Assembly: GCA_000402655.1 (NCBI GenBank)
Contig: AQSI01000002.1
Location: 83,720-147,719, forward strand
Reading direction: 5' to 3'
Source of the DNA: Fidelibacterota bacterium SCGC AAA298-D23
Lineage (GTDB): Bacteria; Fidelibacterota; Marinisomatia; Marinisomatales; Marinisomataceae
Length of the DNA stretch: 64,000 nt
The notes below the pieces were generated by a model, which saw nothing but the letters and a program-made list of their open reading frames with translations, did no database searches and had not been told where the DNA came from. The position numbers and the translations under genes were made by a program. Positions 21,774 to 39,736 of the stretch are shown here, in pieces (position 1 is the first letter of the stretch; the number at the start of each line of letters is the position of its first letter).

Positions 21774-21775
21774 AT

Positions 21776-22364: not shown

Positions 22365-22411
22365 ATTTAACACCTGATGTATTGAATTAATATTAATTAA
22401 GGAGGTACATC

Positions 22412-23291: not shown

Positions 23292-23433
23292 AAGGAAAGA
23301 AAAATGAAATATTATAAAAAAACTTGATTTTAATTTTTAAAAATATTTATTTATTAGTGAGATATTTCTGATTTTTATCACCAATTCTCCGCAATACTTT
23401 AATCAAAAATTAAACAGGGAAAGGAACGCCTAT

Positions 23434-23706
23434 ATGACGCTACATTTATTTAATCCAAATTCAAAAGAATACAAAAAAATAGAACAAATCTATCAGAACA
23501 ATACATGCATGATCTGCAACCTTCCTATGAAGATGCATAGTTTATACTTCTTTTCATTTGACAAGGAAAAGGTAAAAGATGGAGAAATGCATGAAACATA
23601 CCATATTGGATGCAATAATTGCTTTTCGCTATATGACTCAGATTTTGTCTTGGTACAAATTGATATGAGACATTTCATTGGTTATACAATAAGAAATTTA
23701 GCTTAA
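23434..23706 (+). CDS. Small zinc-ribbon protein
   Basis: 90 aa with a GGAAAGGAA SD and two CxxC pairs (CMIC ... CNNC). Confidence 0.5.
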   Translation: MTLHLFNPNSKEYKKIEQIYQNNTCMICNLPMKMHSLYFFSFDKEKVKDGEMHETYHIGCNNCFSLYDSDFVLVQIDMRHFIGYTIRNLA

Positions 23707-23713
23707 CTACATA

Positions 23714-23739
23714 TTAAAATGTATTATATTACATTTTAA
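23714..23739. repeat. Perfect 10-bp inverted repeat (hairpin or operator)
   Basis: TTAAAATGTA (23714-23723) and TACATTTTAA (23730-23739) with a 6-nt loop, 8 nt after the stop of the 23434 gene. A related TACATTTTAAGATGTA sits in the 24051 promoter. Confidence 0.45.
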
Positions 23740-23844
23740 AATATATATAAAAATAACATTTATTTAGATTACGCAGTTTAACAATATAAGACAATTCAAG
23801 AAGAGTAGACGTAAGTATTAGTACTCGTTGCAACCAGCATAGAG

Positions 23845-23960
23845 CGTCGCAACGACTGGACAGTCTACAGTAGCTAAATCGTCGCAACGACTGGACAGTC
23901 TATAGTCGATAAATCGTCGCAACGACTGGAAAAGTCTACAGTCGCTAAAACGTCGCGAGC
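23845..23960. repeat. Three tandem 35/35/36-bp GC-rich direct repeats plus a partial fourth copy
   Basis: Copies are at 23845-23879, 23880-23914 and 23915-23950, and CGTCGC starts again at 23951. The first 23 nt of copies 1 and 2 are identical (CGTCGCAACGACTGGACAGTCTA). Each unit carries the mini-palindromes GTCG-CAA-CGAC and GACTG-GA-CAGTC. Confidence 0.9.
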
Positions 23961-24050
23961 ATGTATCTTAATCAATTAAAATTTGTAAAATCTTAATTTT
24001 TTTTCTCCTCATTAAAATTGTTTTGAAATACTTAAAAATTGAAAAACTAC

Positions 24051-24079
24051 TTGACATACATTTTAAGATGTAGTAAGTT
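24051..24079 (+). promoter_or_regulatory. Candidate sigma70-type promoter of the plus-strand island operon
   Basis: TTGACA (24051-24056), a 17-nt spacer, then TAAGTT (24074-24079). The spacer contains the inverted TACAT/ATGTA. Confidence 0.45.
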
Positions 24080-24114
24080 GATTCATGATTAAAAACTTAA
24101 CAAAGGAACAAAAC

Positions 24115-24363
24115 ATGCAATTATTAAACGGAATAAGAGTTACAAAGCACTTTATAGAACGTTATGCTGAAAGAGTGCTTAAAATTGGTAAATATAATTA
24201 CTCTGCAATGCGAATTAAAGTACTAGAAGATCTTATTGAACGTATGACTATGGTTGAAAAACAAAGCTTTGGTTTATTATGTTCATCTAGAAATTTAAAA
24301 TTTCCCCTTGGTGGAGTCTATAGAATGGTAATTTGTAACAAATCTTTAATAACAATATATTAA
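24115..24363 (+). CDS. Small DUF4258-like protein (possible toxin), paralog of 23049..23291
   Basis: ATG 24115 is preceded by an AAAGGAA SD. The track's ATG 24085 would sit at the predicted transcription start. TKHFIERYAERVLK...KFPLGGVYRMVICNKSLITIY matches the paralog. Confidence 0.6.
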   Translation: MQLLNGIRVTKHFIERYAERVLKIGKYNYSAMRIKVLEDLIERMTMVEKQSFGLLCSSRNLKFPLGGVYRMVICNKSLITIY

Positions 24364-24377
24364 TAATAGGAGTTAAA

Positions 24378-24593
24378 ATGTCATACGATGCAGAAAAAGT
24401 ACAATTAAAAGATATCATTGAAACATTTAAGAGTAAAGTACGTAGATTAAAAGGACTAACAAAATATATGCCTGGATTACTCCATGGAACAGTAGAAATG
24501 ATGGATGCGTTAATTTATAAATATGAAAATGATAAAATTTTAGATGTTGATAGCATACATTTTTATATGAAGGAAAATCATGACAAAAACTAA
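24378..24593 (+). CDS. Hypothetical small protein
   Basis: 71 aa with an AGGAG SD, 14 nt after the preceding stop. Confidence 0.55.
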   Translation: MSYDAEKVQLKDIIETFKSKVRRLKGLTKYMPGLLHGTVEMMDALIYKYENDKILDVDSIHFYMKENHDKN

Positions 24594-25815
24594 CTATTTA
24601 AAGCCAACTCTGCTTAAGACTACTAAAGAATCAAATATATGGTTTGAAAGAGTTTGGAAAGTAGACCCAAGTCTTCATTTGGAGTATACCAAATTACTTT
24701 CTGATATGAAGGAATTTAATAGAGATTCAAGCTTGGTTTACTCAACATTGCTTTCAGTTAATGAAAATGAAAAAAAACATTCGAGCAAAGATATTGATAA
24801 AGTTTTTAACTTAATACCTAATAATCACAATGATGCATGGGAGCAGCTTAATGCAGTTGTAAAAGTTGTTGATTCAAATAAAAAAAAGGCAAAAACATCT
24901 TATGTATTTGGTTCAAGAACTTTCAGAGATCCTTTAAGGAAAAAATTTTTTCTAGCCAAATATAGTGACGGAAAAAACACTTTTTTACATAGCAATCCCG
25001 TTACTAATCATGAAAATAATAAAGATATTGTTATAAATGTTTCACATAATATTAAAACTGACAATCCAACAAAAAAGAAAGGTTTAAATACTTCAAAAGA
25101 ATTATTATCAAAGTATCTTTCTAAAAAACCAATAAAATTCTCAAACTTTAAAAATGAAGAAAATATTGAATATGAGTTTACCTATCCAGTACTTCATTCA
25201 AAAGTTATAACATGTATCAGCTTTATTAAAAGAGCTGTTAGCATTTTTTTTAAATGCCACGGTATTAATTTTTCTTCTATAGATATTGTACCAATCTCAA
25301 ATACAAATTATGAAATATTTATTGCTAGTTCAGAGGCATCTGATGTTAATTCTTTTTGTTCACAGAATTCATATTTCACTTTTAATGGGTATATGGGTCC
25401 TGATGAGGTAGAATGTTCACCACTAGCTAATCATTTTAATTTGTTCTTGAATGAAATTTTTACAAAATCAAATCTCTATTATTTCAATCAAGATCTTTGG
25501 ATTTACTTAACTTTCAATATTTATTCCAGAGATAAATCACTTAGGTTCAATACAATTATGAATAAAAGAATGGAAAGAATAATTAAGACAATTCGATCTC
25601 TAAATAATTTACATCACAAAAATAATTATGAATTTGATAAAAGTGATTTTGATAATTCATATAACAACTTGGATGAAGCAATTAAAGATTATAAAGCTAT
25701 ATATGAACAATGGTTCAAAGATAATGCTATACCAAAATCTCCAGAGGAAGAAATTGAAATGCTAAAAAAAGAATTGGCTGAAAAACAAGAGCTTTTAAAG
25801 AAGTCAAAAAAATAA
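24580..25815 (+). CDS. Hypothetical protein (ORFan, Asn/Lys-rich, C-terminal coiled coil)
   Basis: 411 aa with a 14-nt overlap onto the upstream gene and no motif I recognise. Confidence 0.65.
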   Translation: MTKTNYLKPTLLKTTKESNIWFERVWKVDPSLHLEYTKLLSDMKEFNRDSSLVYSTLLSVNENEKKHSSKDIDKVFNLIPNNHNDAWEQLNAVVKVVDSNKKKAKTSYVFGSRTFRDPLRKKFFLAKYSDGKNTFLHSNPVTNHENNKDIVINVSHNIKTDNPTKKKGLNTSKELLSKYLSKKPIKFSNFKNEENIEYEFTYPVLHSKVITCISFIKRAVSIFFKCHGINFSSIDIVPISNTNYEIFIASSEASDVNSFCSQNSYFTFNGYMGPDEVECSPLANHFNLFLNEIFTKSNLYYFNQDLWIYLTFNIYSRDKSLRFNTIMNKRMERIIKTIRSLNNLHHKNNYEFDKSDFDNSYNNLDEAIKDYKAIYEQWFKDNAIPKSPEEEIEMLKKELAEKQELLKKSKK

Positions 25816-28512
25816 GTGATGAGTAGAATCTTTCCAGACTCAAATTATAATATTTTTGAAGATCTTAATAATCCAAGAAGTAAGAGTGAGTGGGGATATG
25901 GATATGAAAAATCAAGCAATACAGAATTTATTAATTACAAAGAGTTTATAGATAAGCTTGACCAGTATGTTGATTCAAATTTTAAAATATGGCTAGGAAC
26001 TGACCCTTATAACCCTCTTTATTTTTCTGAGATATGCATCTTTGATCAAGAGAACGGAACTTTTCATCTAATTGAATACTTTCCTTTTAAACATCAAGAG
26101 CAAGTTAATTACATTTTCAATCCAAATGCTTTTAAAAGGGGCGTACTTATTAAGGATAGAATTTTTAAAAATAAAAAAAATCCAAAATCTTTTTCAACCA
26201 AAGATCATCATTTGTATCTGAAAAATATTCTTGAACTTAAAAAAATATATGATAACAAGGGTGACAAAGGACAGCTTTCGGACGTTGATGAGAGCAGGAA
26301 AAAAGATATTTTAAATTATAATAATAAGTTTGAAAAACTTTTAAAAGACTATAAGACAATAAAAGATGATCCAGTTAACAGACTGAATAGGTTTTCTTAT
26401 GGAATAACAGATTCCCTAAATATCTCTAACAATGATGCTAAATCATTTAGAGAAAATAACATTTATAAACATTTCTTTTTTGGAAATCTTAACTCAGAAT
26501 ATAAAGAAGATTATTTTATTACATCTGAAGATGAAAAGAAATTTTTTTCATCACAAAAGGCATACAATTACGGAAAAGGTATTAATTATTATGGTAGGGA
26601 AGACTTCCAATTATTGATTGATAAAATAAATAAACAGATAAAAAATCCAATTTGGAATTCCAAAAAACATGTTAAAAAAATAGAATTCAATTTTTTACCT
26701 GTAATAAAAAAAGTTGAAAAGAATAAACCTAAAAAACTTTCAGATATTCAGATAAAACATGTGAATAGAAAAGCTTTTTCAAGTAGGATGAGAATATCAG
26801 GTGTTGCTGGTTCCGGAAAAACTTTTTGTTTAACAACAAGAGCAATGAATTATGCTAATAACGATAAAAATGTTTTGTATACATTCTTTACTTCGTCATT
26901 CAAAAGTTATGTTATACACAACTTAGAAAATCCTGATTTTACCTATAAAAGACGAGTTGGTAATTACAATAAACCGAGTATAGTTGTCAAAAATATTCAT
27001 ATGTTATTTTCAGAAATGATAGACCAATATTATTTACACATTAAGTCTCTAGGTCTTAAAGATGATGAGGGTCTAGATTATAGAAATATCAGAAAAATAA
27101 AGCCCGAAAAAAATAAAAGTTTTGAAGTGGCATTTACAACAAAAATAAATCGTTTAATAAAACATGATGAAAAAGTTTTTTTTGATGCGATGGGAAACGT
27201 TTTTGACTTTGATGCTATAATGGTTGATGAGGGTCAAAATTTTAAAAGCTCATGGTTTTCTGTTTTGCAAAAAGTTTGTTTAAAAAATAGACCAAAAGAA
27301 CAGACTTATGGAGATATGATGGTAGCATTTGATGAAAAACAAAAGCTATTTGGTGATAATGAAGTTGGAGAATCAATAAAGGAACTATCAAAACCCGAAT
27401 TAATAAATGATCCTTTAAATGCGACATATAGAATTCCACCTAATTTGTTTGAAAAGGTAAATATTGTTAGAAAAAAACTTGGTTTGTCAGAAATCGAATA
27501 CATAATTCCTAGTAAAAAAGATTTAGATTTTATGTCTGAAGGAGAATATGAATGGATAAACATACCAAAGAATTTTTCATCTATAGATGATAAATCAGAA
27601 TTTATTGTAAATAATACACTTAAAATAATTAAAAAAAATAGTTTGAAGCTTGGTGACAGTGCTATTATAACAGACGATCATACAATAATGGCTAAAATCC
27701 AAGATTTAATTAACAAGAAAAATCTTCTAGAGAATAATGATGCGCATTTAGAAAAGATTACAGATGAACAAGAAATATTAGATAAAAACAAAAATCACAC
27801 CACTATGATTCTAACAGAATGCCCTGACAAACATAAAGAGAAGCTTCATAATATGCTTTTAAACAGTAATATTGAACCTGGGAAAGATGAATCGTGGTTG
27901 CTACAAGATAATGAATTTAAAATGAAAAGTTATGGAAAGTGGAATCCAGAAACAAGGTCAAGAAAATTAAGAAATGACTACAGCTTGCTTAACACCGATA
28001 AGTATAATTTATTATTCCATTTATATGAGGATGAAGAACAATTACAGGAGTCCATCCTTGATGATTATGAACAGGATATCCCATCTTATGCTATAGATCC
28101 AAAACTTTCAAAAGAAAGTTTAAATTTACTACCTGATGTTAAGTACGAAGTGGCTTACAATTGGAATGAAAATGAGCTAAATACTCATAAAATATCTAGA
28201 AGGGCTCAATGGCTAAATAGGCAATTGAAGGATATTTACGACTTCTCAGATGATAAAGGGTTAATTACTCACACAATAAAAAGCTTTCAAGGACAAGAAT
28301 TACCAAATATTTTTATCTATCTTTCCAGTCAATTCAATAAAGATGGATTAAGAAAAGAGCAAGGAGCTAAATATACATATTGGAAAAGTTCATGGGAATA
28401 TGAAGCTTATGTTAATCAGCTTTTTGTTGCACTTACTAGGTCTAGAAATTCTGCTTGGTTATTTAATGATAGTAGCGAATTAGATTTTATTTCTGAAGAA
28501 TTTAATAGGTGA
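25816..28512 (+). CDS. Superfamily-1 (UvrD/Rep-like) helicase-family ATPase with about 320-aa unknown N-terminal region
   Basis: 898 aa, starting at GTG 25816 or ATG 25819, directly abutting the upstream stop. Motifs are Walker A GVAGSGKTF, motif II IMVDEGQNF, NATYRIP (NYRS-like), IKSFQGQELPNIFIYL and LFVALTRSRNSAWLF. Confidence 0.8.
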   Translation: MMSRIFPDSNYNIFEDLNNPRSKSEWGYGYEKSSNTEFINYKEFIDKLDQYVDSNFKIWLGTDPYNPLYFSEICIFDQENGTFHLIEYFPFKHQEQVNYIFNPNAFKRGVLIKDRIFKNKKNPKSFSTKDHHLYLKNILELKKIYDNKGDKGQLSDVDESRKKDILNYNNKFEKLLKDYKTIKDDPVNRLNRFSYGITDSLNISNNDAKSFRENNIYKHFFFGNLNSEYKEDYFITSEDEKKFFSSQKAYNYGKGINYYGREDFQLLIDKINKQIKNPIWNSKKHVKKIEFNFLPVIKKVEKNKPKKLSDIQIKHVNRKAFSSRMRISGVAGSGKTFCLTTRAMNYANNDKNVLYTFFTSSFKSYVIHNLENPDFTYKRRVGNYNKPSIVVKNIHMLFSEMIDQYYLHIKSLGLKDDEGLDYRNIRKIKPEKNKSFEVAFTTKINRLIKHDEKVFFDAMGNVFDFDAIMVDEGQNFKSSWFSVLQKVCLKNRPKEQTYGDMMVAFDEKQKLFGDNEVGESIKELSKPELINDPLNATYRIPPNLFEKVNIVRKKLGLSEIEYIIPSKKDLDFMSEGEYEWINIPKNFSSIDDKSEFIVNNTLKIIKKNSLKLGDSAIITDDHTIMAKIQDLINKKNLLENNDAHLEKITDEQEILDKNKNHTTMILTECPDKHKEKLHNMLLNSNIEPGKDESWLLQDNEFKMKSYGKWNPETRSRKLRNDYSLLNTDKYNLLFHLYEDEEQLQESILDDYEQDIPSYAIDPKLSKESLNLLPDVKYEVAYNWNENELNTHKISRRAQWLNRQLKDIYDFSDDKGLITHTIKSFQGQELPNIFIYLSSQFNKDGLRKEQGAKYTYWKSSWEYEAYVNQLFVALTRSRNSAWLFNDSSELDFISEEFNR

Positions 28513-28518
28513 CAATTT

Positions 28519-28713
28519 ATGGGCTGCTTTAACACATTATTTTTATTATTACTTGGCGGAATATACTTATTCTGGCCTGATTTAATGCAAGTTGAAGGCT
28601 TTTGGTTTAGTTTTATAGCTGTATGGCTATGTTTTTTTATTTCATGGGCATTATTTGGCGATATAGCAGATGAAATTTCGGGTGTAAATAAATATAAAGA
28701 TGATGAATTCTAA
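28519..28713 (+). CDS. Small two-TM membrane protein
   Basis: 64 aa with two hydrophobic helices and an acidic tail. Confidence 0.55.
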   Translation: MGCFNTLFLLLLGGIYLFWPDLMQVEGFWFSFIAVWLCFFISWALFGDIADEISGVNKYKDDEF

Positions 28714-29077
28714 ATCACTTAATTGGTCTAACTGGAAATTATTACCAAATCCTTCTAAGTCACATAATAGTTTTAGATCGTTAATCATGAAAGCAGTAAG
28801 AAACCCTTCCTATCCAGGAGTTTATCAATTAAAAAACAATGATACGGGTGAATATGTACTTTTTGGGGTAGGTGTTAAGGTAGGAGAGCGTATGTGCTCC
28901 TTAATTCCTAAAGAATACGGTGGTGTTGGACGAAGAAACAACCACTATAAAAGAGATTATGTTTGGAAAAATATAGAATACATTCAGTTTAGAACGATAA
29001 CTACTGAAACACGCAATGAAGCTCTTGAAATAGAAAGATTTTTAAAACATCAAAATATTCATATTTTCAATACATGA
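28700..29077 (+). CDS. GIY-YIG-like nuclease domain protein
   Basis: 125 aa. PGVYQLKNNDTGEYVLFGVG supplies the GIY and YIG elements with the correct spacing. It also has a downstream Arg and the NEALEIERFL catalytic-Glu helix. It overlaps both neighbours. Confidence 0.55.
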   Translation: MMNSKSLNWSNWKLLPNPSKSHNSFRSLIMKAVRNPSYPGVYQLKNNDTGEYVLFGVGVKVGERMCSLIPKEYGGVGRRNNHYKRDYVWKNIEYIQFRTITTETRNEALEIERFLKHQNIHIFNT

Positions 29078-29904
29078 ATTCTAGCGTGAAACCTTTTTTG
29101 AAGTGGGTAGGTGGCAAGTACACTTTAGCAATTGAGCTTAAAAAGCATTTACCAAACAATTTTGATGAGCTTAATTATATTGAACCAATGTTAGGTGGAG
29201 CTGGTATGTTTTTCAATTTGCAACCAAAAAAAGCTATTTTAAGCGATATAAACAAAAAACTTATCATAACCTATCAATCTATCCAAAATAACGTTGAAGG
29301 TGTTATTTCGGAGCTAAAAAAGCATGAATTAAACCACAAAACTAATGAAGATTACTTTTATGATGTAAGAGAGTATTTTAATAAAGGATGTGAAACACGT
29401 GAAGGACTTGCAGCAGCTTTTATATATCTAAATAAAACAAATTTTAATGGATTATATAGAGTTAATAATAAGGGAGAGTTTAATGTTCCAAAGGGAAGAA
29501 CTACCTCGGGTTCTGTTACTATCTGCGATGAAAAAGTATTAAAAAATTGCTCAGATTTGCTTAAAGGTGTTGAACTGTATTGGAAGTCCTATGAAGATGC
29601 TTTAAAAGATTTAAATAAACATTGTTTTGTATATCTAGATCCTCCTTACTTACCACAAACAGATGTCTCATTTACTAAATATTCTAAAGATGGATTTTCA
29701 GTTGAGGATCATCAAATATTATCAAAACATTGTAAAGATTTATCTCAAAGAGGTATAAAGTTTATGATGTCAAATGCTGAAAATGATTATACGTATGAAA
29801 TATATGGTGATTTTTCAATTAAACCACTGACTGTTTATCATTCTCTGGGTCCAGACAAAAAAACAAGAAAAAAGGCAAAGGAATGTATAATTACAAACTA
29901 TTAG
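29074..29904 (+). CDS. Dam-family (alpha-class, D12) N6-adenine DNA methyltransferase
   Basis: 276 aa. PFLKWVGGKY, EPMLGGAGMFF, NFNGLYRVNNKGEFNVP and YLDPPY are collinear with E. coli Dam. Confidence 0.88.
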   Translation: MNSSVKPFLKWVGGKYTLAIELKKHLPNNFDELNYIEPMLGGAGMFFNLQPKKAILSDINKKLIITYQSIQNNVEGVISELKKHELNHKTNEDYFYDVREYFNKGCETREGLAAAFIYLNKTNFNGLYRVNNKGEFNVPKGRTTSGSVTICDEKVLKNCSDLLKGVELYWKSYEDALKDLNKHCFVYLDPPYLPQTDVSFTKYSKDGFSVEDHQILSKHCKDLSQRGIKFMMSNAENDYTYEIYGDFSIKPLTVYHSLGPDKKTRKKAKECIITNY

Positions 29905-29905
29905 T

Positions 29906-30355
29906 TTATTTAGCTGCTTTTTTCATGTAGGAGTAAAGAGTCGTAATTACTTTTTCTTCATCCTCTTGATTTAAAATCTTTAGAAGCTTTTTAATTCCGC
30001 CATTAGCATACTCATGCGAAATATTTTGAATAATTTTTTTATCTTCATCTAAAATTTCAAGCCCTTTTTCTTTAACGGCTATAGATACAATTAAAGCAAC
30101 GGTATTTTTTCGCAAAATAGTGTCAATATTTCCACCTCTTACTTGCTGTAACCAACCGCCATTATTATTTGTGAAAGTTCCTTTTAATTTCAAATTATCT
30201 GTGTAGCCAATAGCTATCGCCATACAAACGACTTGTAATTTATCTATATTATATTTATCAACAATTTCATGTTTAAAAACTTTTTGCCATGTTTCTTCGT
30301 TTTTACTATCAATATAGAAAGCACTTCGTACAAAATTTTGAATATTATTTGCCAT
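29906..30355 (-). CDS. DndE-like / dnd-associated small protein (tentative)
   Basis: 149 aa with a TAATG overlap onto the upstream ATPase. The blocks VVCMAIAIGY ... NNNGGW ... ISHEYANGGIKKLLKIL loosely follow my memory of the DndE pattern. Confidence 0.35.
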   Translation of the reverse strand: MANNIQNFVRSAFYIDSKNEETWQKVFKHEIVDKYNIDKLQVVCMAIAIGYTDNLKLKGTFTNNNGGWLQQVRGGNIDTILRKNTVALIVSIAVKEKGLEILDEDKKIIQNISHEYANGGIKKLLKILNQEDEEKVITTLYSYMKKAAK

Positions 30356-32475
30356 TATATTGTTCTTTTATGGTAGTTAGTCTCAATTGCATTATCTTTA
30401 TCTAAGCTTGAAATTTTTATTTCATAGAAGTTTGAGACATAGGGTTTAATAATCTTGAAAACATCATCAGTGAGTTCAGAGTCAGTAAAAAAGAAGGTAG
30501 TTTGAATATCTTTATCTTTCAAGTTAACAAAATTTTCCATTATTCCTTTTCTGTATTCTAAACTAACCGCACTAAGAGGCGTATCAATAAACATTGGAAA
30601 TCTTAATTCCAAACCTTCTTGCATGGACTGCATGTAACAATATCCTGTAAGAAATTGTTCCCCTGTTGACATGAGAGGAGAACCATTCAATGGAAGTAAA
30701 TTATTATTATTCTTATCACTAACATTTAAGTTGTAATTTTCAGAGATTTTAGCATTCCAAAAACCTTTTTTTAGCGTTGTTGTTTCAATTAATTTTCTAA
30801 ACCTATCATTAGTAACTTTTAAGGCTTCCAGTCTTGTGTCCTCAATAGCTGGCTCTAGAAGATTAATTGATTTTTCAAGAAAATTTAATTGAATATATGC
30901 TTCTGAAGAACTTGATATATTTTTTTTAATATTTTTAATTTCCTCATTGAGTTCTCTTATAAAATCAATATTAGTTTCAACAATAGCTTCTTTTTTAGTT
31001 AAATCTCTATTAGCGACTTTAAGCCTTATTTCTGCCATATCATGTTTTTTTTGAATTTCTTTCATTGACTTTTTATCATAATTTCCAATTTCATTCATAT
31101 GATCTGCTCTTTGTTTATCTAAGTTACTCAGTTTATTTTTAATTTTTTTTAATTCGTCATATGAATTTTTTGCATTCTCGAAGATTATGGTTGGACTGTC
31201 ATTTAAAATTCCAGCTGTAAATTCTTTGGTATGGGTTGCAATATTCGCAATTTGACTTTTTCTTTTTGATGCAACTCCTTGATTATATTCTTTTATTTTA
31301 TCTAGAAATTTTTCCTTATTAAAATTTTTAATCCAATTTATTTTTGCATAAAATTGTTTATCTTTTTTTAATTTTCCATCAATATCTTTAATTACAAGTT
31401 TATCCTCATCAATAATTAAATCTAATATGTCTTCAACATTTTCAAGGGCAGGAGGGGGTAATTCTTTATTTTCAATTTTTTTTGCAATTAATGTATCAAA
31501 ATCATCTATTTCTTTTCTTAGAACAACATTTGCAAATGATTCTAATATATCTGTTTTATACTTATTATCTATTTCGTTGTATTTTTCATTTAATGCTACC
31601 TTTTGAATATCAATTATTTCAACTTTATTATAAATTTTTTCTGTTGCCTCATTTTTTTTTATGATTTCAACGTAGTCATTGATTTCATTCTTAATGCTTA
31701 ATATTTCCTCCTCAAGTTCGCCAATATCATTTACAAGCTTATTACCGAGTTCAATTTTTTCTGTTACAGAATTTTGAGTTCTAACAAGAATAGCTTCTGG
31801 GCTGGTTCCTGTCGATTTTGGTATTTTTTTAACAAGCTCAGATCTTAAATTTTTAAGATTTTTTAAAACACTTGTCATATCAGTAATTCCTGTTAATATG
31901 TTTAAATGAGATTCAATTGAGGATGATTTGTTTGCTTTAACAAAATCTTGAATGTCCTGACCATCAAAAAAGAAGAAGTTTTGAATTGATCCATTGATAA
32001 TATTATTTTCAATATACTGTTCTGCGCTGTCATCCTCTCTGGATTGCAATCCTTCAGAATTATAAAAAGTAACATCTAATTGAGCTTTTTTAGGTAAATA
32101 CTTTAACTCAACTGGTTTTGTGTCCGTCTTATCTTTTATCTTTTGAAAAACTTCTGAACGTTCAACAGTTTTTTCATTATTATTTTCGTCGAGAAATATA
32201 ATTTTTACAGAAACTGTTTCTTCTTCATTAATTAGCATTTGTTGTGCAACTTTAAAATTTAGTCTTTCATTTTGAAATTCTTTTTGTCTGATATTTGATA
32301 ATCTAGGTTCTTTATTAAAAAGGCACCAACTTATTGCCCTGTAAGTACTAGTCTTTCCAAATCCATTATTTCCTAGAATTATGTTAAAAGGCTTATTTTT
32401 TGAAGTGCTCAAATCGAGCTCATGAAAACCCTTATATTGTCTAAAATTATTTAAATGAATTTTTTTAATTTTCAT
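30355..32475 (-). CDS. DndD-like SMC/ABC-type ATPase
   Basis: 706 aa. The N-terminus is MKIKKIHLNNFRQYKG...ILGNNGFGKTS (Walker A), followed by about 400 aa of coiled coil. The C-terminus has the STGEQ signature, then PMFIDTPLS and FFFTDSEL, as in DndD (xIDTPLGRLD...TDxE). Confidence 0.65.
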   Translation of the reverse strand: MKIKKIHLNNFRQYKGFHELDLSTSKNKPFNIILGNNGFGKTSTYRAISWCLFNKEPRLSNIRQKEFQNERLNFKVAQQMLINEEETVSVKIIFLDENNNEKTVERSEVFQKIKDKTDTKPVELKYLPKKAQLDVTFYNSEGLQSREDDSAEQYIENNIINGSIQNFFFFDGQDIQDFVKANKSSSIESHLNILTGITDMTSVLKNLKNLRSELVKKIPKSTGTSPEAILVRTQNSVTEKIELGNKLVNDIGELEEEILSIKNEINDYVEIIKKNEATEKIYNKVEIIDIQKVALNEKYNEIDNKYKTDILESFANVVLRKEIDDFDTLIAKKIENKELPPPALENVEDILDLIIDEDKLVIKDIDGKLKKDKQFYAKINWIKNFNKEKFLDKIKEYNQGVASKRKSQIANIATHTKEFTAGILNDSPTIIFENAKNSYDELKKIKNKLSNLDKQRADHMNEIGNYDKKSMKEIQKKHDMAEIRLKVANRDLTKKEAIVETNIDFIRELNEEIKNIKKNISSSSEAYIQLNFLEKSINLLEPAIEDTRLEALKVTNDRFRKLIETTTLKKGFWNAKISENYNLNVSDKNNNNLLPLNGSPLMSTGEQFLTGYCYMQSMQEGLELRFPMFIDTPLSAVSLEYRKGIMENFVNLKDKDIQTTFFFTDSELTDDVFKIIKPYVSNFYEIKISSLDKDNAIETNYHKRTI

Positions 32476-32672
32476 TTTTTTCTTTTTCTTTGTTTTGAAA
32501 TTTGATTATTTAAAGAATCAATATAGTCTTTTCTGTACTGTGTAATAGTTTGATAGTTTTGAATTGATTGAATATTAATTAAATGCTTTAAAAAGTGGTA
32601 ATTTTCTATATTATCATCCTGTTCAGCTATTTTTTTAATTATTTCTAATCCTTTATCTGAAAATGATTTCAT
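32472..32672 (-). CDS. Small helical protein with basic tail
   Basis: 66 aa with ATGA overlaps on both sides and a C-terminal KQRKRKK. Confidence 0.55.
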   Translation of the reverse strand: MKSFSDKGLEIIKKIAEQDDNIENYHFLKHLINIQSIQNYQTITQYRKDYIDSLNNQISKQRKRKK

Positions 32673-34726
32673 TCTTCAATTTTCCATTCTTCTTTTAAAT
32701 TTTCTATCATGATTGAATTTTCATCATGATTTAACGAAATATGAGAAAATTCATCAATTCTTTCTAGTTGTTTTTTAATTAAGTTTTGTTGCATAAGAAA
32801 TGATATACTTGGATCTGCAGGGGGGATACAAATAAAATCATAAATATCAGCAATTTTTTTAGATTCTTTATATGGTTTTCTAAGGACTCGTCCACGTCTT
32901 TGAATATATTGCTTTGAATTATTTGAGCTAGCAAGTATAATTGCAGTTTCAGCATTTGGAATATCTACACCTTCATCAAGACAATTCATTGCAATAATTG
33001 CATCAAGTTTCTGATTTTTAAATCTGCTCATCATATCCTTTCTAGCTTGTGTTGATGTACCAGATATAAATCTCATATATCTCATACCTTTTTCATTTAA
33101 AATTGACTGTATATTTTCTAAAAAATCTTTTGTGCCGCAATATATAAAACCTCCATTTAAGTCGTAGTTTAATTCGCTAATTAAATTTTCGAATGCCTCA
33201 TATTTATTGTATGCTGTTTTTATTATTTCTGCTCTTTGTAATAATAGATTTTCATAATGTTTCTTAAACTCTGGCTTATCATAAATAGGAGCCATCTTTC
33301 TAGTTAATTCTTTATAATCTTGTAACTCATCATTTGTTAAATCAACAAGATTAATATGATATCTATATGGGCATAGAAAGCCATTTTCAATTCCCCATGC
33401 CAAATCTTTTTCATAAAAACATCCTTCTTTATCAAAATATGTATATATCAAATCACTACCTTCATCATCAAAATATCTTTTTGGTGTTGCGCTTAATGCA
33501 ATGCGACAATCAAAATTATTAATTAAACCTTGTTTCCATTTTGGAGCACCTGCATTATGTACTTCGTCACATATTATAGCCAAAGGTTTTTGACATTCAT
33601 TAATGATTTTTTTATAATCGTCTTTATAGAAAGACTGATAAGTAACTAGACATATTATATTATCTTCAAATTCTATATTAAGATTGGTTATAGCTTGCTG
33701 TAATTCTTTTTTGCTTCTATCTCTTAAAATAAAAGGTTGAATACCTAAAATTTTTTCAATTTCATCAGCCCATTGATAAATTAGCGTTTCACTAGGAACA
33801 ACAATTGAGCAATAGTATGCATTATCAACTGATTTAGCATATTCTTTTAATGCAAAAAGGGAAGTATACGTTTTACCTAATCCAGTCGCTAGCGCAAGAA
33901 TACCTTTGAAATTATTTTGAACAAGTTTATCGATTGCTTCTTGTTGGTACTCACGCGGACCACTTTCCTCAACAATAATTTCTTGTGATTCTGAATTAAT
34001 TTCAATTAAATCTTTTGTCAGTTGATCGCTAGCAACTAATACATCTTGAGTAGTTTTTAGGTCATTATTTATTAACAGTCTTTCTTTGCAAACTTTCGGA
34101 AAATCTACAACTTCAACTTTATCGGCAAGATTATTCCAGTAAATATCAAATTTTCTGAAACTATTTTCTACTCTTTTTTTATCAATTTCGTTATCCCAAG
34201 ATGTAAAAATATTTGCACTCTCAATCTGATTAAGAAGTGAATTTGCTGACTCATTAATTGATCCATTATAATTCAATCTATTTCCATCAGGATCTTCGAA
34301 ATTTCCCCATTTTGAGTGTAACATACCACCATCATCAGGCTTCTTAAATCCAATCTTTATTTCAAGAAAATCATTTGCTATCATCCAGCCTAGTATCTTT
34401 CTTGGATTATCTTTCAACATAAGTTCAAGTTTTTTTATATCATCTAATAGCTCATCATCAAACTGATTTGTATAACCAGCTTTTATAGACTCATAATCTT
34501 CTTCGCTATTAATATGTTTGCTAAAAATAAGTCGATATTTACCTTTATTTTGAATGAATTGAGACATTCCTTCTGCTACAGCTGATAACGATTTAGGACT
34601 AAAATATCCCGCAACTCTATCATACCGCATAGAGTTCTTTAATGCAGGAAGGTAAAAATCGCTCAGAAAATTATCTTCTAAGCCTCCATCAAAATGTTCA
34701 CTAATTTTTAAATTTTTTAAATTCAC
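32669..34726 (-). CDS. PLD-family nuclease domain fused to a DExH (SF2, restriction 'res'-type) helicase
   Basis: 685 aa with a GTG start. It has a single HKD motif (HSKWGNFEDPDGNRLNYNGSINES). Helicase motifs are I ATGLGKTY, II ICDEVHNAG, III LSATPKR, V LDEGVDIPN and VI QRRGRVLR. Confidence 0.8.
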   Translation of the reverse strand: MNLKNLKISEHFDGGLEDNFLSDFYLPALKNSMRYDRVAGYFSPKSLSAVAEGMSQFIQNKGKYRLIFSKHINSEEDYESIKAGYTNQFDDELLDDIKKLELMLKDNPRKILGWMIANDFLEIKIGFKKPDDGGMLHSKWGNFEDPDGNRLNYNGSINESANSLLNQIESANIFTSWDNEIDKKRVENSFRKFDIYWNNLADKVEVVDFPKVCKERLLINNDLKTTQDVLVASDQLTKDLIEINSESQEIIVEESGPREYQQEAIDKLVQNNFKGILALATGLGKTYTSLFALKEYAKSVDNAYYCSIVVPSETLIYQWADEIEKILGIQPFILRDRSKKELQQAITNLNIEFEDNIICLVTYQSFYKDDYKKIINECQKPLAIICDEVHNAGAPKWKQGLINNFDCRIALSATPKRYFDDEGSDLIYTYFDKEGCFYEKDLAWGIENGFLCPYRYHINLVDLTNDELQDYKELTRKMAPIYDKPEFKKHYENLLLQRAEIIKTAYNKYEAFENLISELNYDLNGGFIYCGTKDFLENIQSILNEKGMRYMRFISGTSTQARKDMMSRFKNQKLDAIIAMNCLDEGVDIPNAETAIILASSNNSKQYIQRRGRVLRKPYKESKKIADIYDFICIPPADPSISFLMQQNLIKKQLERIDEFSHISLNHDENSIMIENLKEEWKIEE

Positions 34727-35349
34727 TAAAATATTTCTGTTTGTTCTTTTAAAGATATTTCTTTTGTTTTTTCGTTTATATAAAAACTATCTGGTGCATT
34801 CAAGCCAATTAAAATTATTGGTGTAGGCACGATGCTTTGATATGGCTTAAAATATTCTATAAAGTTCTCAAAAGTTCCAACTGCTCCATCAAAATTGCCA
34901 ATTTTTTTTAAGTTGCTAGTAGCACAAATGATGACACCTAAGCTCGTTTGGATTTCTTTTTTTACATGATTTAGTTCACTAGAAAGTACTGGCTTCATGA
35001 TGTTATGTGAAATTACTGTACTGTGATTGAATGCTACCTCGAGAGCTAGTTCATTTTTTACAAAATCTAAACGCCATTTTCTATTTGTCTTATAAGCTTT
35101 ATCGTAAAAAATAGCAGATTCAGAGCTCCAACCTAGATTAAGTAATTTTTCCTTGAGAATTTGATTTATAGGTTCTGAAAGGCTTTTAATATTTGGCCTT
35201 TCTTGTTTTCTGAAGTTAAACGCATTAATTAGGTCTTTATCAGAAATTGAATTAATTACAGATATTAATTCATCGTAATCTTCTTTATATTTTAAATCAC
35301 TTTTAACTATTTGATCAGAGTGTCTATGATAGTATAGTGTATGTTTCAT
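34726..35349 (-). CDS. BglII/BstYI/BamHI-like type II restriction endonuclease (tentative)
   Basis: 207 aa. WRLDFVKNELALEVAF has the same D-x8-E-x-X spacing as the BglII core IDFGKRDTLVEVQF, and the C-terminal TPIILIGL resembles BglII VPIRLVGL (from memory). It lies adjacent to a C5 methyltransferase. Confidence 0.55.
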   Translation of the reverse strand: MKHTLYYHRHSDQIVKSDLKYKEDYDELISVINSISDKDLINAFNFRKQERPNIKSLSEPINQILKEKLLNLGWSSESAIFYDKAYKTNRKWRLDFVKNELALEVAFNHSTVISHNIMKPVLSSELNHVKKEIQTSLGVIICATSNLKKIGNFDGAVGTFENFIEYFKPYQSIVPTPIILIGLNAPDSFYINEKTKEISLKEQTEIF

Positions 35350-35373
35350 AAATAAATTTATATAATTTAATAA
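35350..35373. promoter_or_regulatory. 24-bp divergent control region between endonuclease operon and methyltransferase
   Basis: The sequence is AAATAAATTTATATAATTTAATAA. TATAAT (35361-35366) ends 7 nt before the methyltransferase ATG, and TATAAA-like elements occur on the other strand. Neither side has an SD. Confidence 0.4.
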
Positions 35374-36579
35374 ATGCCAAAATTAAAAGTAGTAGAATTA
35401 TTTGCCGGAGTAGGAGGGTTTCGATTAGGTCTTGAGAAATCAGGCCATAAAACTGTTTGGGCTAATCAATGGGAACCAAAAACAAAGGTTCAACATGCAT
35501 TTGATTGTTATAGCGCGCATTTTGATGATTCATTTAAAGATTTAAATACTGATATTAACGAAGTTGATTACACTAAAGTGCCCAATCATGACTTACTTGT
35601 TGGCGGATTTCCTTGCCAAGATTACTCAGTTGCTACTGTCCAAGCACAGGGAATAGAAGGGAAAAAGGGAGTATTATGGTGGGCAATTGAGAAGATTTTA
35701 AGAGAAAAAAGACCTAAATATGTACTTCTTGAAAACGTAGATAGATTGCTACGATCTCCAACACAGCAAAGAGGGCGTGATTTTGGTGTTATTTTGTCAT
35801 GTTTGCATAATCTTGGGTATTGTGTTGAGTGGAGAGTTGTTAACGCCGCAGAATATGGATTTCCTCAAAAAAGACGTAGAACTTTCTTTTTTGCAGCTCA
35901 AAAAGGTACAAAGTGGTACAAAAATATGGAAAAAAGGCATTTAGAGCCTGATTTTATCCACAATAAAGGATTTTTTAGTGATGAATTTAAAGTCAAACAG
36001 GACAACACGCTCGAAATCAACCTTTTTGATGAGGTTAAAAATATAGCTGATACGCAATCTATAAGCGACACATTCTCATATCATTTTTTGAATTCTGGCT
36101 TTTTATTTAATACTACAATTAGTACAAAGAAGGTTTTTCCAGATTATAATGGAAAACAGACTGTTTTAGGAGATATATTAGATAAAACTGTTGATGATAA
36201 GTATTTTGTCAGGGATGAAGCACAAATTTGGAAATGGAAAGAACTAAAAGGCGCTAAAAAGAGAAAAGTTAAGCGAAAAGATGGTGGTACATTTTTTTAT
36301 TCAGAAGGTTCAATGCCATTTCCTGAGCCTTTAGAAGCTCCAGCGCGTACAATTATTACATCTGAAGGCGGACAAACGCCAAGTAGATTCAAACATATTA
36401 TCATGGATCCAAAGAAAAATGAATATAGAACGTTAACACCAGATGAAGTTGAAAAAATATGCGGGTTTCCAGCTGGATGGACAAATACTGGAATGCCCGA
36501 TAATTGGAGATATTTTTGTATGGGTAATGCATTGGTTGTAGGTCTTATTGAAAAGATGGGAAAAACTTTATTAAATTAA
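35374..36579 (+). CDS. DNA (cytosine-5)-methyltransferase
   Basis: 401 aa with motifs I ELFAGVGGF, IV GGFPCQDYS, VI LLENVDRLL, VIII FPQKRRRTFF, IX TLTPDEVEKICGFPAGWT and X MGNALVVGL. Confidence 0.93.
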   Translation: MPKLKVVELFAGVGGFRLGLEKSGHKTVWANQWEPKTKVQHAFDCYSAHFDDSFKDLNTDINEVDYTKVPNHDLLVGGFPCQDYSVATVQAQGIEGKKGVLWWAIEKILREKRPKYVLLENVDRLLRSPTQQRGRDFGVILSCLHNLGYCVEWRVVNAAEYGFPQKRRRTFFFAAQKGTKWYKNMEKRHLEPDFIHNKGFFSDEFKVKQDNTLEINLFDEVKNIADTQSISDTFSYHFLNSGFLFNTTISTKKVFPDYNGKQTVLGDILDKTVDDKYFVRDEAQIWKWKELKGAKKRKVKRKDGGTFFYSEGSMPFPEPLEAPARTIITSEGGQTPSRFKHIIMDPKKNEYRTLTPDEVEKICGFPAGWTNTGMPDNWRYFCMGNALVVGLIEKMGKTLLN

Positions 36580-36646
36580 ATCTGCTGTTATCACGCTGTT
36601 TATCAGTGTTTTACGCATAATATATATTATGTATAATTAGATAAAT

Positions 36647-37318
36647 ATGAGAAAAAACTTAGGAAAAAATACAAGAAAATTTATACTATCCTTCCTCGGT
36701 AGTCTTACTACTGCAGCTATTTTTTATGGTGGTGGTAATTACATTAATAAACAAACACCCTACTATAATTTCTTTTCTAACTTTATAAGCGATTTAGGAA
36801 GAACTACTAGCCATTCTGGTGACGATAATACTATATCTCTATCTTTTTTCATAATTGGTATGCTCATTCAAGTTTTTGGTGCTTTCTATTTTTTATATAA
36901 TGCTGCAGATTATTTTAAAAGTGATAAACCAAAAGTAACTATTTTAGCTAAGATTTCTGCTGCAATTGGATCTATTAGCTTACTTGGAGTCATCTTAACC
37001 CCTGCAGATGTCCCTTCATTGTATTTTCTTCATATTTTATTCGCAAATTCGGTGTTTAATTGCTCTTTTGTCACTTTAAGCATATATGGTTATCTTTTTT
37101 ATACAAAAGGCCTAAAAAACGTTACTTACTCCCTTTTATTATGCTCGATTGTTGTTTTAGGATATATAGTATTCCTTGAAATAGGACCTGCTCCTTGGAA
37201 ATCTATTGAAGCACTAACTCTTCACGCTACATATCAAAAAGTTGCTGTATTAAGTTTACTCGGTACAATCTGGATAATGTCAAAAGGAACTGATTTACTG
37301 AACAACGAAATTGAGTAA
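36647..37318 (+). CDS. Integral membrane protein of unknown function
   Basis: 223 aa with about six hydrophobic helices. Its 3' end overlaps the leuS 3' end by 24 nt. Confidence 0.6.
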
Positions 37319-39736
37319 TCTATTTGGAACATAGATCGTTTTAACTATGTTTCCATCGGAAGTAAATTTTTTAACATTTTCTAATGACATTGCTTCAGAT
37401 ATAACATCTGATTCGTTCGAATCTTTAGAAACATTAATGTTAGCTCTTAACTTACCATTTACCTGAACAGCAATAGTAACTTCATCTAATTGTATTAAAT
37501 CCTCACTATACTGTGGCCATGACTGATATGAAATGGTTTGAGAATGTCCTAATAAACTCCAAAACTCTTCTGCGATGTGTGGAACAAATGGGCTTAATAT
37601 AATAACTAATTCTTCAATAAGTTTTTTAGAAACTGTATTACATTTTTGTAAATGATTACAATAAATCATGAGTTGAGATACTGCAGTATTAAAATGCAAG
37701 TCTTCGATATCTTCACCTAATTTTTTAATTGTCTGATGGTGTAAAAATAATGTGTCTTTATCCCCTTCGTCATTATCGACAATCTTTTTTGACAAATTAC
37801 CATTTTCATCTACAATAATTGACCACAATTTATTTACAAATCTATAACAACCTTGTAATCCTTTTGTACTCCAAGGTTTTGATTTATTTAAGGGACCCAT
37901 AAACATTTCATAAAGCCTCATCGAATCCGCTCCATACTCATCTATAATCTCTTCAGGATTTATTACATTTCCTCGAGATTTACTCATTTTTGTACCATCA
38001 TCACCTAAAATCATTCCTTGATTATAGAGTTTTTTAAATGGTTCTTTTGTTGATACTAGACCTAAATCATATAAAACATGATTCCAAAATCTCGAGTATA
38101 ATAAATGAAGCACTGCATGCTCTTGTCCACCAATATACAAATCTACTGGCATCCAATAGTTTTCTTTTTCTTTTGACCAAGCTTCATTGTCATTTTTAGG
38201 GTCTGTAAATCTTAGAAAATACCAACAAGATCCAGCCCATTGGGGCATAGTATTTGTTTCTCTAAGTCCAATAATATTACCACTTTCATCTTTTACTTCA
38301 ACCCAATTTTTAACTAATGATAATGGAGATTTACCATCATCTGATGGCTTATAATTTTCTACTTCAGGAAGCATTACTGGTAAATCTTTTTCTTGTATTA
38401 ACTCCACTGAATCATCTTTGTGAATTAATGGAAAAGGCTCTCCCCAATATCTTTGTCTAGAAAATAACCAATCTCTTAATTTGTAATTAACTGTGGCTCT
38501 TCCTATTGAATTTTTTTCTATAAATGAAATTGCTTCCTTAATAGCTCTATCTACAGTCAAACCATCCATAGATAAAGTTTTATCGTTTGAAGAATTTATA
38601 ATTTTTGCGTCACCTTTTGCAGTAAATGCAGCTTTAGACACATCTCCGCCCTCAACAACTTCTACTATAGGGAGATTATATTTTGATGCAAACTCCCAAT
38701 CTCTTTCGTCATGACCAGGAACAGCCATAATAGCGCCAGTTCCATAACTTATTAACACATAGTCAGCTATCCATATTTCAATTTTTTCTTTGCTAAAAGG
38801 ATTTATTGCATAGCTTCCAGTAAAAACACCAGTTTTATCCTTATTAACTTCTGTTCTATCAAAATCTGATTTCTTTTTTGTTTCATCTATATAAGCTTCC
38901 ACTTTTGATCTTTGCTCATCAGTGACAATTGAATGAATTAAGGTATGCTCAGGAGCTAAAACCATATAAGATGCACCAAAAAGAGTATCAGGCCTTGTAG
39001 TATAAACATTGATTGTATCATTATGCCCATCAATTTCAAACCCTAACTCTACACCTTCTGATTTACCGATCCAATTTTTTTGAAGTTCTTTAATATTTTC
39101 AGGCCAATCTAAATCATCTAATCCATCAAGTAATGACTCTGCATAATCAGTAATCTTTAAAATCCACTGTCTCATTGGTAGTCTTACAACTGGATGTCCA
39201 CCTATATCAGACTTTCCATTAACAACTTCTTCATTAGCAAGAACTGCTTTTAGTTCAGGACACCAATTAACAGCAACCTCCTGTTCATAAGCTATACCTT
39301 TATTATAAAGTTGCATGAAAATCCATTGAGTCCATTTATAGTAATTTGGATCTGTAGTATTAATCTCTCTTGACCAATCGTAAGAGAATCCAAGGCTATT
39401 TATCTGTTTTTTGAAATTTGAAACATTTTGTTGAGTTGTTTCTTTTGGATGAGTACCTGTTTTTATCGCATATTGCTCTGCTGGAAGACCAAACGCATCC
39501 CAACCCATAGGATGAAGCACATTAAAACCTTTCATGCGCTTGTAACGTGCCACAATATCTGTTGCTACATATCCCAAAGCATGACCAACATGCAGACCTG
39601 CTCCTGAGGGATACGGAAACATATCTAAAACATAATATTTAGGCTTATTGACAGAGATATCTTCAGACTTAAAAGTTTGATTTTCTAACCAAAATTTTTG
39701 CCATATGCTCTCTATAGATTTATGATCGTAGCTCAA
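37295..39736 (-). CDS. leuS: Leucine--tRNA ligase
   Basis: 813 aa with a HIGH-type motif ([16 protein letters not shown]), the KMSKS motif ([10 protein letters not shown]) and a CP1 editing domain. Confidence 0.96.

Follow-up and report, generated by a model that had tools for sequence, protein, structure and literature searches.

Do the five overlapping genes that run head to head with a cytosine methyltransferase gene at positions 29906–36579 of a 64-kb stretch of DNA from Fidelibacterota bacterium SCGC AAA298-D23 (contig AQSI01000002.1; hereafter, the window means this whole stretch of 64,000 nucleotides) form an undescribed defense system, as a preliminary description of the sequence had proposed? 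Our analyses give a different answer: four of the genes are the known system PbeABCD, the fifth encodes an ordinary type II enzyme, and the locus is a methylase-linked variant of Pbe. Our best explanation of the whole, which we regard as probable, is a composite of a type II restriction–modification (R-M) pair, PbeABCD, and a Dam-family methyltransferase, with methylation probably serving as the self-mark in place of phosphorothioate and the nuclease being separable from the rest. The gene layout was defined with a table of open reading frames (ORFs) and a direct reading of the letters at the junctions; the labels L001–L100 denote comparison loci and contigs holding homologs of the window's genes. 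The features are as follows.

35374–36579, plus strand: C5 cytosine DNA methyltransferase, 401 aa (PF00145, TIGR00675, PADLOC MTase_II)
35350–35373, no strand: divergent spacer of 24 bp between the start codons of the methyltransferase and nuclease genes (ORF table)
34726–35349, minus strand: type II restriction endonuclease of the BglII/BstYI/BamHI fold, 207 aa, first gene of the operon (PF09195; structure model and Foldseek)
32669–34726, minus strand: PbeA, single-HKD phospholipase D (PLD) nuclease with a superfamily 2 (SF2) DExH translocase/helicase, 685 aa, GTG start (PADLOC PDLC02707)
32472–32672, minus strand: PbeB, small fast-evolving protein, 66 aa (position and size)
30355–32475, minus strand: PbeC, coiled-coil ATP-binding cassette (ABC) ATPase of the DndD/CxC clade, 706 aa (PADLOC PbeC, AAA_23)
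29906–30355, minus strand: PbeD, predicted DNA-binding partner of PbeC and remote DndE relative, 149 aa (position, size, motif)
29074–29904, plus strand: Dam-family (D12 class) N6-adenine methyltransferase, 276 aa (TIGR00571, PF02086)
28700–29077, plus strand: 125-aa ORF, a possible associate only, overlapping the Dam start by 4 nt (ORF table)

Along the minus-strand genes, the junctions read TAGTG (1-nt overlap), ATGA (4 nt), ATGA (4 nt), and TAATG (1 nt), and all six ORFs of the preliminary description, together with their lengths, their overlaps of 1 or 4 nt, and the 24-bp divergence, were found where it had placed them. In a 24-sequence alignment, homologs of the 685-aa protein align from residue 1, in support of its GTG start. 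The five genes and the flanking methyltransferase genes have the same layout in two related contigs, L089 and L099, and the arrangement is therefore not an assembly accident. Scans of 28.4–37.4 kb for promoters (54 promoter-like sites versus 50 ± 6 expected) and terminators (2 terminator-like sites versus 3.4 expected) were at chance level, and the operon structure is therefore read from the gene overlaps only.

The claim that the combination was undescribed did not survive a check against PADLOC and the published descriptions, which cover four of the five genes as PbeABCD. The 685-aa protein matches the PADLOC model of PbeA (PDLC02707) at 4.4e-196, with residues 3–670 lying on positions 2–668 of the 672 in the model; it also matches ResIII and Helicase_C in Pfam and NCBIfam, and its 360-bit match to dnd_restrict_1 (TIGR04095), C-terminal in the protein, is below the cutoff of that model. 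The single-HKD PLD nuclease and SF2 helicase seen earlier in this protein are borne out by the motifs: across 24 homologs, the HKD residues H137, K139, D145, N158, and E159 are invariant, and SF2 motifs I, II, III, and VI are intact and invariant. The closest solved relative is 7clg, a 953-aa PLD-helicase, aligned at PbeA residues 136–667 (1e-10). The 706-aa protein matches the PADLOC PbeC model at 1.2e-34 (118 bits; residues 1–672 on positions 1–638 of 651), with the PADLOC DndD model close behind at 3.9e-32, and it matches AAA_23 at 9e-16; Walker A (G35-K41-T42), the signature (S603-Q607), and Walker B (D631) can be read from its sequence. The preliminary description had called it an ATPase of the structural maintenance of chromosomes (SMC)/ABC type with DndD-specific motifs: the ATPase stands on AAA_23, the Walker motifs, and the signature, and the affinity to DndD turned out to be subthreshold or weak (TIGR03185, 85.7 bits against a cutoff of 245.85).

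The two small proteins have no match in the Pfam and PADLOC profile libraries even at E ≤ 10. The 66-aa protein fits PbeB in position and size, a gene of 45–85 aa lying between A and C in ∼60 loci, and its sequence homologs are confined to the Marinimicrobia clade, at 27–69% identity. The 149-aa protein has the motif (E/H)EYANGG in common with 56 other proteins in the PbeD position, G120 being invariant. The PADLOC PbeD model matches only 1 of these 57 members, and its failure on the window's protein is hence uninformative; L087, a clade member 36% identical, carries the precomputed label PF27807, DNA_S_mod_dnd_assoc_4. By the definition of the system, PbeD should be a cognate of DndE having two ribbon-helix-helix domains. 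With hhalign, the PbeD-family profile aligned to a family of DndE proteins from 19 loci over 108 columns, nearly the full length, at 55% probability (P 1.2e-4), which is consistent with the published claim of remote homology without proving it. The family of 57 has no match to Pfam DndE (PF08870), and its profile gave only noise against the PDB sequences and Pfam. Direct searches for relatives found five (word-indexed) and seven (exhaustive, on representatives), too few for a deep profile, and the AlphaFold2 (AF2) model, made from an alignment of six near-identical sequences, is unusable, with a predicted local distance difference test score (pLDDT) of 45. The earlier label "DndE-like" is thus kept here in a weak form.

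A profile scan with the PbeA alignment, using one genome per species, sets these genes in a wide family. Relatives of PbeA at 27–34% identity occur in at least 80 loci across many bacterial and archaeal phyla; the counts that follow refer to the 80 distant loci among the matches listed, which do not include the window's own lineage and in which gene order comes from crude ORF calling. The order A (∼690–760 aa), B (45–85 aa), C (640–730 aa), and D (125–200 aa) recurs in ∼70 of them, and 47 lie within 10 kb of phosphorothioation genes of the Dnd or Ssp type. A metagenome scan with PbeA alone yielded six loci. In the 64 kb of the window, tblastn with DndC, DndE, DndA, SspB, and Ssp-1209 found no phosphorothioation genes at E ≤ 0.1, and a DndD query matched only PbeC; together with a profile scan of nine proteins, this upholds the earlier statement that sulfur-transfer, DISARM, and BREX genes are missing. 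A Pfam comparison of the immediate upstream neighbors of pbeA in 50 loci shows 11 cysteine desulfurases, 4 MTaX1, 3 N6_N4 methyltransferases, 2 DndE, and 2 DndC; a MutH-family nuclease takes that place only in L003, and there is no type II nuclease family among the top 25 Pfam families listed. A phmmer search of 85 Pbe loci, the 80 distant ones included, found no homolog of the window's nuclease. A separate pattern in this set is a trio of genes directly upstream of pbeA in ∼20 of the 80 loci, made up of DUF4007 (∼290 aa), a ∼1200-aa protein that has no annotation, and a class-V aminotransferase of ∼380 aa (L009, L018, L021, L023, L024, L026, L029–L033, L039, L040, L042, L053, L057, and L084). 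The trio looks like an Ssp-type, rather than a Dnd-type, phosphorothioation module paired with Pbe.

The name CxC-ABC-ATPase/DndE-anchored system reportedly comes from Krishnan et al. in 2020. The pbeABCD genes were defined by Xiong et al. in 2019 (Nat Commun 10:1688; PMC6459918), with PbeA combining PLD and helicase domains, PbeC being an AAA_23 ATPase, and the prototype PbeB and PbeD measuring 66 and 152 aa. All four genes were needed to protect a haloarchaeon against the virus SNJ1; the protection depended on phosphorothioate modification of the host and blocked the replication of viral DNA, whose cleavage was not detected (PMC6459918). In the same study, dndCD were missing from 320 of 553 pbeAC loci, and a methyltransferase lay within 10 kb in 155 of those 320, leaving 165 of the 553 with neither (PMC6459918). 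Rakesh, Aravind & Krishnan in 2024 equate Pbe with the "CxC ABC ATPase-DndE anchored system," with PbeB as the fast-evolving small protein and PbeD as the DndE cognate, and argue that the HKD domain implies cleavage (PMC10853773). In many of these systems, cytosine methylases (C5 and/or N4) replace the phosphorothioation genes, often with an MTaX1 gene, and cytosine methylation was proposed to substitute for the phosphorothioate self-mark (PMC10853773). The model of the preliminary description, in which the methyltransferase would mark self DNA and the Pbe module would act on DNA that is unmodified, is this same, already published hypothesis for methylase-linked Pbe.

The fifth gene, at the head of the operon, belongs with the C5 methyltransferase. 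Its 207-aa product scores 36.4 bits against Pfam Endonuc-BglII (PF09195; gathering cutoff 26), and PF09195 is found in all of its 182 homologs. An AF2 model from a 57-sequence alignment (pLDDT 91.7) was compared with the PDB using Foldseek: the top 16 matches are all BglII, BstYI, BamHI, or OkrAI (E 1.5e-8 to 2.7e-4), and the next comes at E 0.37. With a Pfam score above the gathering cutoff and these structural matches, we assign the protein to the BglII-type fold. D95 and E104 do not vary across the family alignment of 57 sequences, in which K98, V105, and A106 reach at least 90% conservation, all five being invariant in a 12-sequence subset; the third catalytic position is a conserved alanine (E104-V-A106), in place of the Gln or Glu of the family motif Asp...Glu-x-(Gln/Glu). 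The methyltransferase matches PF00145 (2e-68), TIGR00675 (1e-72), and PADLOC MTase_II (1.5e-155), and the PCQ and ENV motifs are readable in its sequence; it belongs to a 90%-identity cluster of 111 members. The enzyme is 97% identical to its counterpart in L003, 89% to that in L092, which has no Pbe, and 50% to that in L060, and a C5 methyltransferase adjoins nuclease homologs of 50–97% identity in every context examined (L089, L092–L095, L096–L098, and L099). The type II R-M pair of the preliminary description is thus confirmed by Pfam, Foldseek, and gene neighborhoods, and by its sequence, the C5 methyltransferase would be the modification half of the pair and a candidate writer of the self-mark.

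The close relatives of PbeA come from the same lineage, Marinimicrobia/SAR406, as judged by housekeeping-protein clusters of at least 90% identity, and they show how loosely the nuclease is attached. The window's arrangement is repeated, with a nuclease 91–97% identical, in L089 and L099. In L001 (PbeA 63% identical), the C5 methyltransferase gene diverges from pbeA across 76 bp and there is no nuclease; in L002–L004 (PbeA 63%), a 263-aa MutH-family nuclease fills the slot; and in L005 (PbeA 52%) and L087 (44%), the C5 methyltransferase is convergent, downstream of pbeD, and the window-type nuclease is absent, L005 carrying also a PDDEXK_11 nuclease and Dam. In L086 (PbeA 40%), Pbe is convergent with MORN and nuclease genes, the opposite relative orientation, and the partner nuclease is all that is visible of the pair before the contig ends. 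The R-M pair in turn occurs without Pbe: in L092–L095, at the same msrA–leuS site, with a nuclease 74% and a C5 methyltransferase 89% identical, and in L096–L098, from a Flavobacteriales metagenome-assembled genome (MAG), where a nuclease 59% identical is convergent with the C5 methyltransferase and nothing else accompanies them. A check of five-gene co-conservation therefore fails, the nuclease being replaced (L002–L004), absent (L001), or found without Pbe (L092–L098), and the five genes are not a co-conserved unit. Since the R-M pair is found without Pbe and Pbe without the nuclease, the modules are separable, and the nuclease gene is an exchangeable addition rather than an obligate fifth subunit. 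The C5 methyltransferase stands beside Pbe in six of seven distinct loci of the clade (the window, L089/L099, L001, L003, L005, and L087). L086, its most divergent member, has two unannotated genes (434 and 180 aa) preceding pbeA on the same strand at 8133–9972.

Between the two methyltransferase genes, the locus is a mosaic. At the DNA level, the window and L003 are 90–97% identical in the C5 methyltransferase gene, 47–75% in the Pbe genes, and 93–99% in dam, the nuclease slot cannot be aligned, and the transitions coincide with gene boundaries; at the protein level, the figures are 97% for the C5 methyltransferase, 98% for Dam, 63% for PbeA, 49% for PbeB, 47% for PbeC, and 55% for PbeD. L099 is ∼90–97% identical to the window throughout except in pbeC, where identity drops to ∼72% in DNA and 71% in protein (window 30400–32550 versus L099 3251–5356); pbeD remains at 91%. 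The drop points to an allele replacement at the level of a single gene inside the cassette. In this comparison PbeC and PbeD are uncoupled, contrary to the published idea of their coevolution. The nuclease and Pbe genes thus form a hypervariable cassette with a conserved methyltransferase gene at either end (C5 on one side, Dam on the other), an organization that appears to be new.

The second apparent novelty concerns PbeC. Among the 70 PbeC-position proteins listed, 41 distant homologs have a CxC and 25 a CxxC in midprotein, so that all 66 of these carry the zinc hook after which the clade is named and which lies at the coiled-coil apex of PbeC. The remaining 4 of the 70, plus the window, L086, and L087, have neither CxC nor CxxC, and all belong to the Marinimicrobia clade. 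The sole cysteines of the window's PbeC are Cys51 and Cys613, and where the hook sits in other proteins, the window's PbeC and four clade relatives have a conserved insert, "ADIKWxKxFxKxKF." The clade-specific, hook-less variant of PbeC appears to be new, and it shows the "CxC" feature to be nonessential to the family.

The Dam-family enzyme on the other side of the cassette matches TIGR00571 at 1e-77 and PF02086 at 4e-58. It is 98% identical to the enzyme of L002–L004, with the Pbe proteins in between at 47–63%, and a Dam-class methyltransferase adjoins Pbe also in L005, L044, L060, L099, and L100. The genes dam (plus strand) and pbeD (minus strand) are convergent, with their stop codons one base apart (window 29904–29906), and in L003 they overlap by 11 nt; this leaves no room for terminators between them, and the convergent transcripts must therefore overlap. 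The 125-aa ORF that overlaps the start of dam has a 92% identical copy in L100 and is absent from L003; by eye, it could be read as GIY-YIG-like ("GVYQL...YVLFGVG...R...E"), and the reading was dropped when Pfam and PADLOC gave no support at E ≤ 10.

On the composite reading, the C5 methyltransferase, and perhaps Dam too, would mark host DNA at a GATC-containing site, and the BglII-fold nuclease would cut DNA that is unmarked. PbeC and PbeD would scan DNA and license the PbeA translocase and HKD nuclease on unmarked DNA, with PbeA as the presumed effector and PbeB as a putative small regulator. The flanking base methylation would probably take the place of phosphorothioate and keep Pbe off host DNA. 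Cotranscription would tie the expression of the nuclease to that of Pbe, and the two would probably be layered defenses against unmethylated incoming DNA, coexpressed without being obligately interdependent. The recognition site of the R-M pair most likely contains GATC, an inference from four observations. All solved structures related to the nuclease (BglII, BstYI, BamHI, and OkrAI) are of enzymes that cut NGATCN. A MutH/Sau3AI-family nuclease partners the 97%-identical methyltransferase in L003, a Dam gene flanks the cassette, and GATC is the most depleted palindromic 4-mer in the window (158 observed versus 227 expected under a maximal-order Markov model, ratio 0.70), CATG being second at 0.81.

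A further case comes from outside the phylum. L060, an Acholeplasmataceae MAG (JBAZCK010000025.1, 6702–16248), has a single same-strand operon of overlapping genes in the order C5 methyltransferase, 461-aa double-MutH (Sau3AI-like) nuclease, 124-aa ORF, PbeABCD, Dam::DUF7226, and separate DUF7226. Its PbeA, with ∼30% identity, is placed outside the Marinimicrobia clade by a neighbor-joining tree, a crude one built from BLOSUM distances, carrying no support values and used only to place L060. In L044 (Oceanobacillus piezotolerans, 6695–9840), Pbe is again accompanied by Dam and DUF7226 proteins, and directly upstream of pbeA lie DUF6996-DUF6997-DUF7226 and a free DUF7226. DUF7226, which recurs as part of Dam-class methyltransferases or beside them near Pbe cassettes, may act as a reader or an adaptor where Pbe is linked to methylation. 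The recurrence in L060 and L044 is the best evidence that the link of Pbe to GATC-type methylation and restriction is selected, and with few loci, it hints at such selection. The alternative built on it is an integrated, GATC-centered supersystem: Pbe would read 5-methylcytosine and/or N6-methyladenine at GATC, the type II nuclease, of the BglII or the MutH/Sau3AI fold, would provide the first cut or the entry site of PbeA, the methyltransferase genes would be the recombination anchors for cassette swapping, the hook-less PbeC would reflect a distinct dimerization or ring closure, and L060 would show selection for the combination. We think it unlikely.

The main rival of the composite reading, likewise unlikely in our judgment, is the opposite proposal, that three independent systems are juxtaposed in a defense-island hot spot flanked by leuS and an epimerase gene, with an incidental 1-nt overlap of the nuclease gene and pbeA; Pbe would then read no modification at all and could be, for example, a Rad50/Lamassu-like sensor of foreign ends or replication intermediates. 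Much of the comparison agrees with this. The modules are separable in L001, L002–L004, L086, and L092–L098; the nuclease gene of L092 overlaps an unrelated MORN-repeat gene downstream of it by 1 nt, just as it overlaps pbeA in the window; the content of the leuS–epimerase island differs in every strain examined; 165 of the 553 pbeAC loci lack both dnd genes and a nearby methyltransferase (PMC6459918); PbeC weakly matches the LmuB models (1.7e-15); and the methyltransferases do not covary with PbeC and PbeD. Chance neighborhood fits less well, however, with a C5 methyltransferase or its partner nuclease adjoining all seven Pbe loci of the Marinimicrobia clade in three arrangements, with the same types of module in one overlapping operon of an unrelated phylum (L060), with a prototype Pbe that requires modification of the host DNA (PMC6459918), and with a variable block that stops exactly at both methyltransferase genes.

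Weakest by far, and very improbable, is an undescribed, obligate five-component machine of BglII-like nuclease, PLD-helicase, and DndD/E-like module: overlaps join all five genes, L089 and L099 repeat the five-gene layout, the conserved methyltransferase genes enclose a variable block that takes in both nuclease and Pbe, and the L060 operon too joins a type II-like nuclease to Pbe, but four of the genes are a named and modeled system, the nuclease is absent from L001, L005, and L087, of another fold in L002–L004, and alone with its methyltransferase in L092–L098, and neither the 80 distant loci among the matches listed (phmmer) nor the genes upstream of pbeA in 50 loci, where a MutH-family enzyme appears only in the clade member L003 and no type II family is in the top 25 listed, offer a counterpart.

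The composite reading has its own difficulties, and the following points weigh against it. PbeC scores almost equally on the DndD and PbeC models and is without the zinc hook that defines the clade, and the DndE homology of PbeD is weakly supported. In L086, the 10 kb upstream contain neither Dam nor any other recognizable methyltransferase. The methyltransferases are 97–98% conserved while PbeC and PbeD fall to 47–55%, a pattern that coevolution of reader and writer would not predict. The C5 methyltransferase gene keeps one fixed place on the chromosome and occurs without Pbe too, so its adjacency may be a matter of island geography. Finally, the published methylase-linked Pbe systems are computational descriptions only.

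The surroundings of the locus are those of a defense island. An epimerase gene (20778–21773) and leuS (37295–39736) bracket a strain-variable segment (20778–37318), whose flanks are conserved in Marinimicrobia and whose content differs in every contig examined (including L002, L005, L086, and L092). Within it, on the plus strand at 24580–28512, an ORF of 411 aa with its stop at 25815 is followed at once, from 25816, by the gene of an 898-aa protein that matches the PADLOC candidate "C3a187 NERD+UvrD" at 3e-20 and, weakly, UvrD/AAA_19 in Pfam; the two are probably a separate two-gene defense system. L005, L087, and L092 have other large NERD/DEAD/UvrD-like genes in the corresponding place, and the 434-aa protein upstream of pbeA in L086 is a distant relative of the 411-aa ORF (24580–25815), with 33% identity over 200 aa. 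Further upstream, a SAM-I/IV riboswitch (22248–22346, plus strand; 46.8 bits, above the gathering score) is followed by a 214-aa ORF (22412–23056) that has no Pfam match.

Pbe is among the least understood of the modification-linked defenses: experiments come from one phosphorothioate-dependent haloarchaeal system, and whether Pbe cleaves DNA is disputed between Xiong et al. in 2019 and Rakesh et al. in 2024. The locus and its relatives form a natural test set: the same methyltransferases stand beside various nucleases and divergent alleles of Pbe, Pbe occurs with and without the nuclease, and the R-M pair occurs with and without Pbe. If GATC-type methylation is the self-mark, reconstitution in Escherichia coli with dam/dcm genetics would make the dependence on modification testable. 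What seems new is the hook-less PbeC, the methyltransferase-bounded hypervariable cassette with its swappable nuclease slot, and the recurrent set of GATC-type modules; apart from these and its value as a test set, the locus is an ordinary segment of a defense island.

How, then, does it compare with known systems? Several candidates were rejected. Lamassu (LmuA-LmuB-LmuC) has in common an SMC/Rad50-like ATPase, a small partner, and a nuclease effector, but the ATPase scores 55 bits with the LmuB models and 118 with that of PbeC, LmuA and LmuC are missing, and in effector, gene order, and small proteins the locus follows Pbe. Canonical DndABCDE fails on the subthreshold TIGR03185 match, the missing PF08870 match, and the missing DndC, and Dpd was rejected on model scores and missing components. 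DISARM and BREX were set aside as none of the nine proteins scanned matches DrmB (DUF1998), PglZ, or BrxC, the only hits being generic ones of the PbeA helicase to BrxHI (E 6e-4 and above) and of the C5 methyltransferase to DrmMII. The SauUSI-type PLD-helicase (7clg) and DISARM DrmA/DrmC resemble PbeA in combining a PLD/HKD nuclease with an SF2 translocase; unlike them, PbeA has no C-terminal reader of modified bases, and the locus has no DUF1998 and has ABC ATPase and DndE-like partners.

Among R-M systems, the window's nuclease has the fold of BglII, BstYI, BamHI, and OkrAI, and like theirs, the pair is divergent or convergent with the methyltransferase and stands alone in L092–L098. M.BglII and M.BamHI are N4-cytosine enzymes; the window differs from BglII and BamHI in having a C5 methyltransferase as the partner, an alanine as the third catalytic residue, and a nuclease gene joined to pbeA. 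Sau3AI/LlaKR2I-type systems (C5 methyltransferase with a MutH-fold nuclease) are matched by the sister strains, which pair a MutH-fold nuclease with the same methyltransferase.

The methylase-linked CxC-ABC/DndE systems (Fig. 4A-iv of PMC10853773; "solitary pbeAC with MTase" in PMC6459918) are like the window in having no phosphorothioation genes and an adjoining C5 methylase; the window differs in having no MTaX1 and in having a Dam-class N6-adenine methyltransferase and a BglII-fold nuclease. From PbeABCD as first defined, the window departs in having no dndCDEA or ssp phosphorothioation genes in 64 kb, in the lack of the CxC/CxxC zinc hook from PbeC, and in the type II nuclease gene at the head of the operon, with the C5 and Dam genes flanking. 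It agrees with PbeABCD in the A-B-C-D gene order, the matching protein sizes, the HKD and SF2 domains of PbeA, the AAA_23 domain of PbeC, and the PADLOC matches of both PbeA and PbeC.

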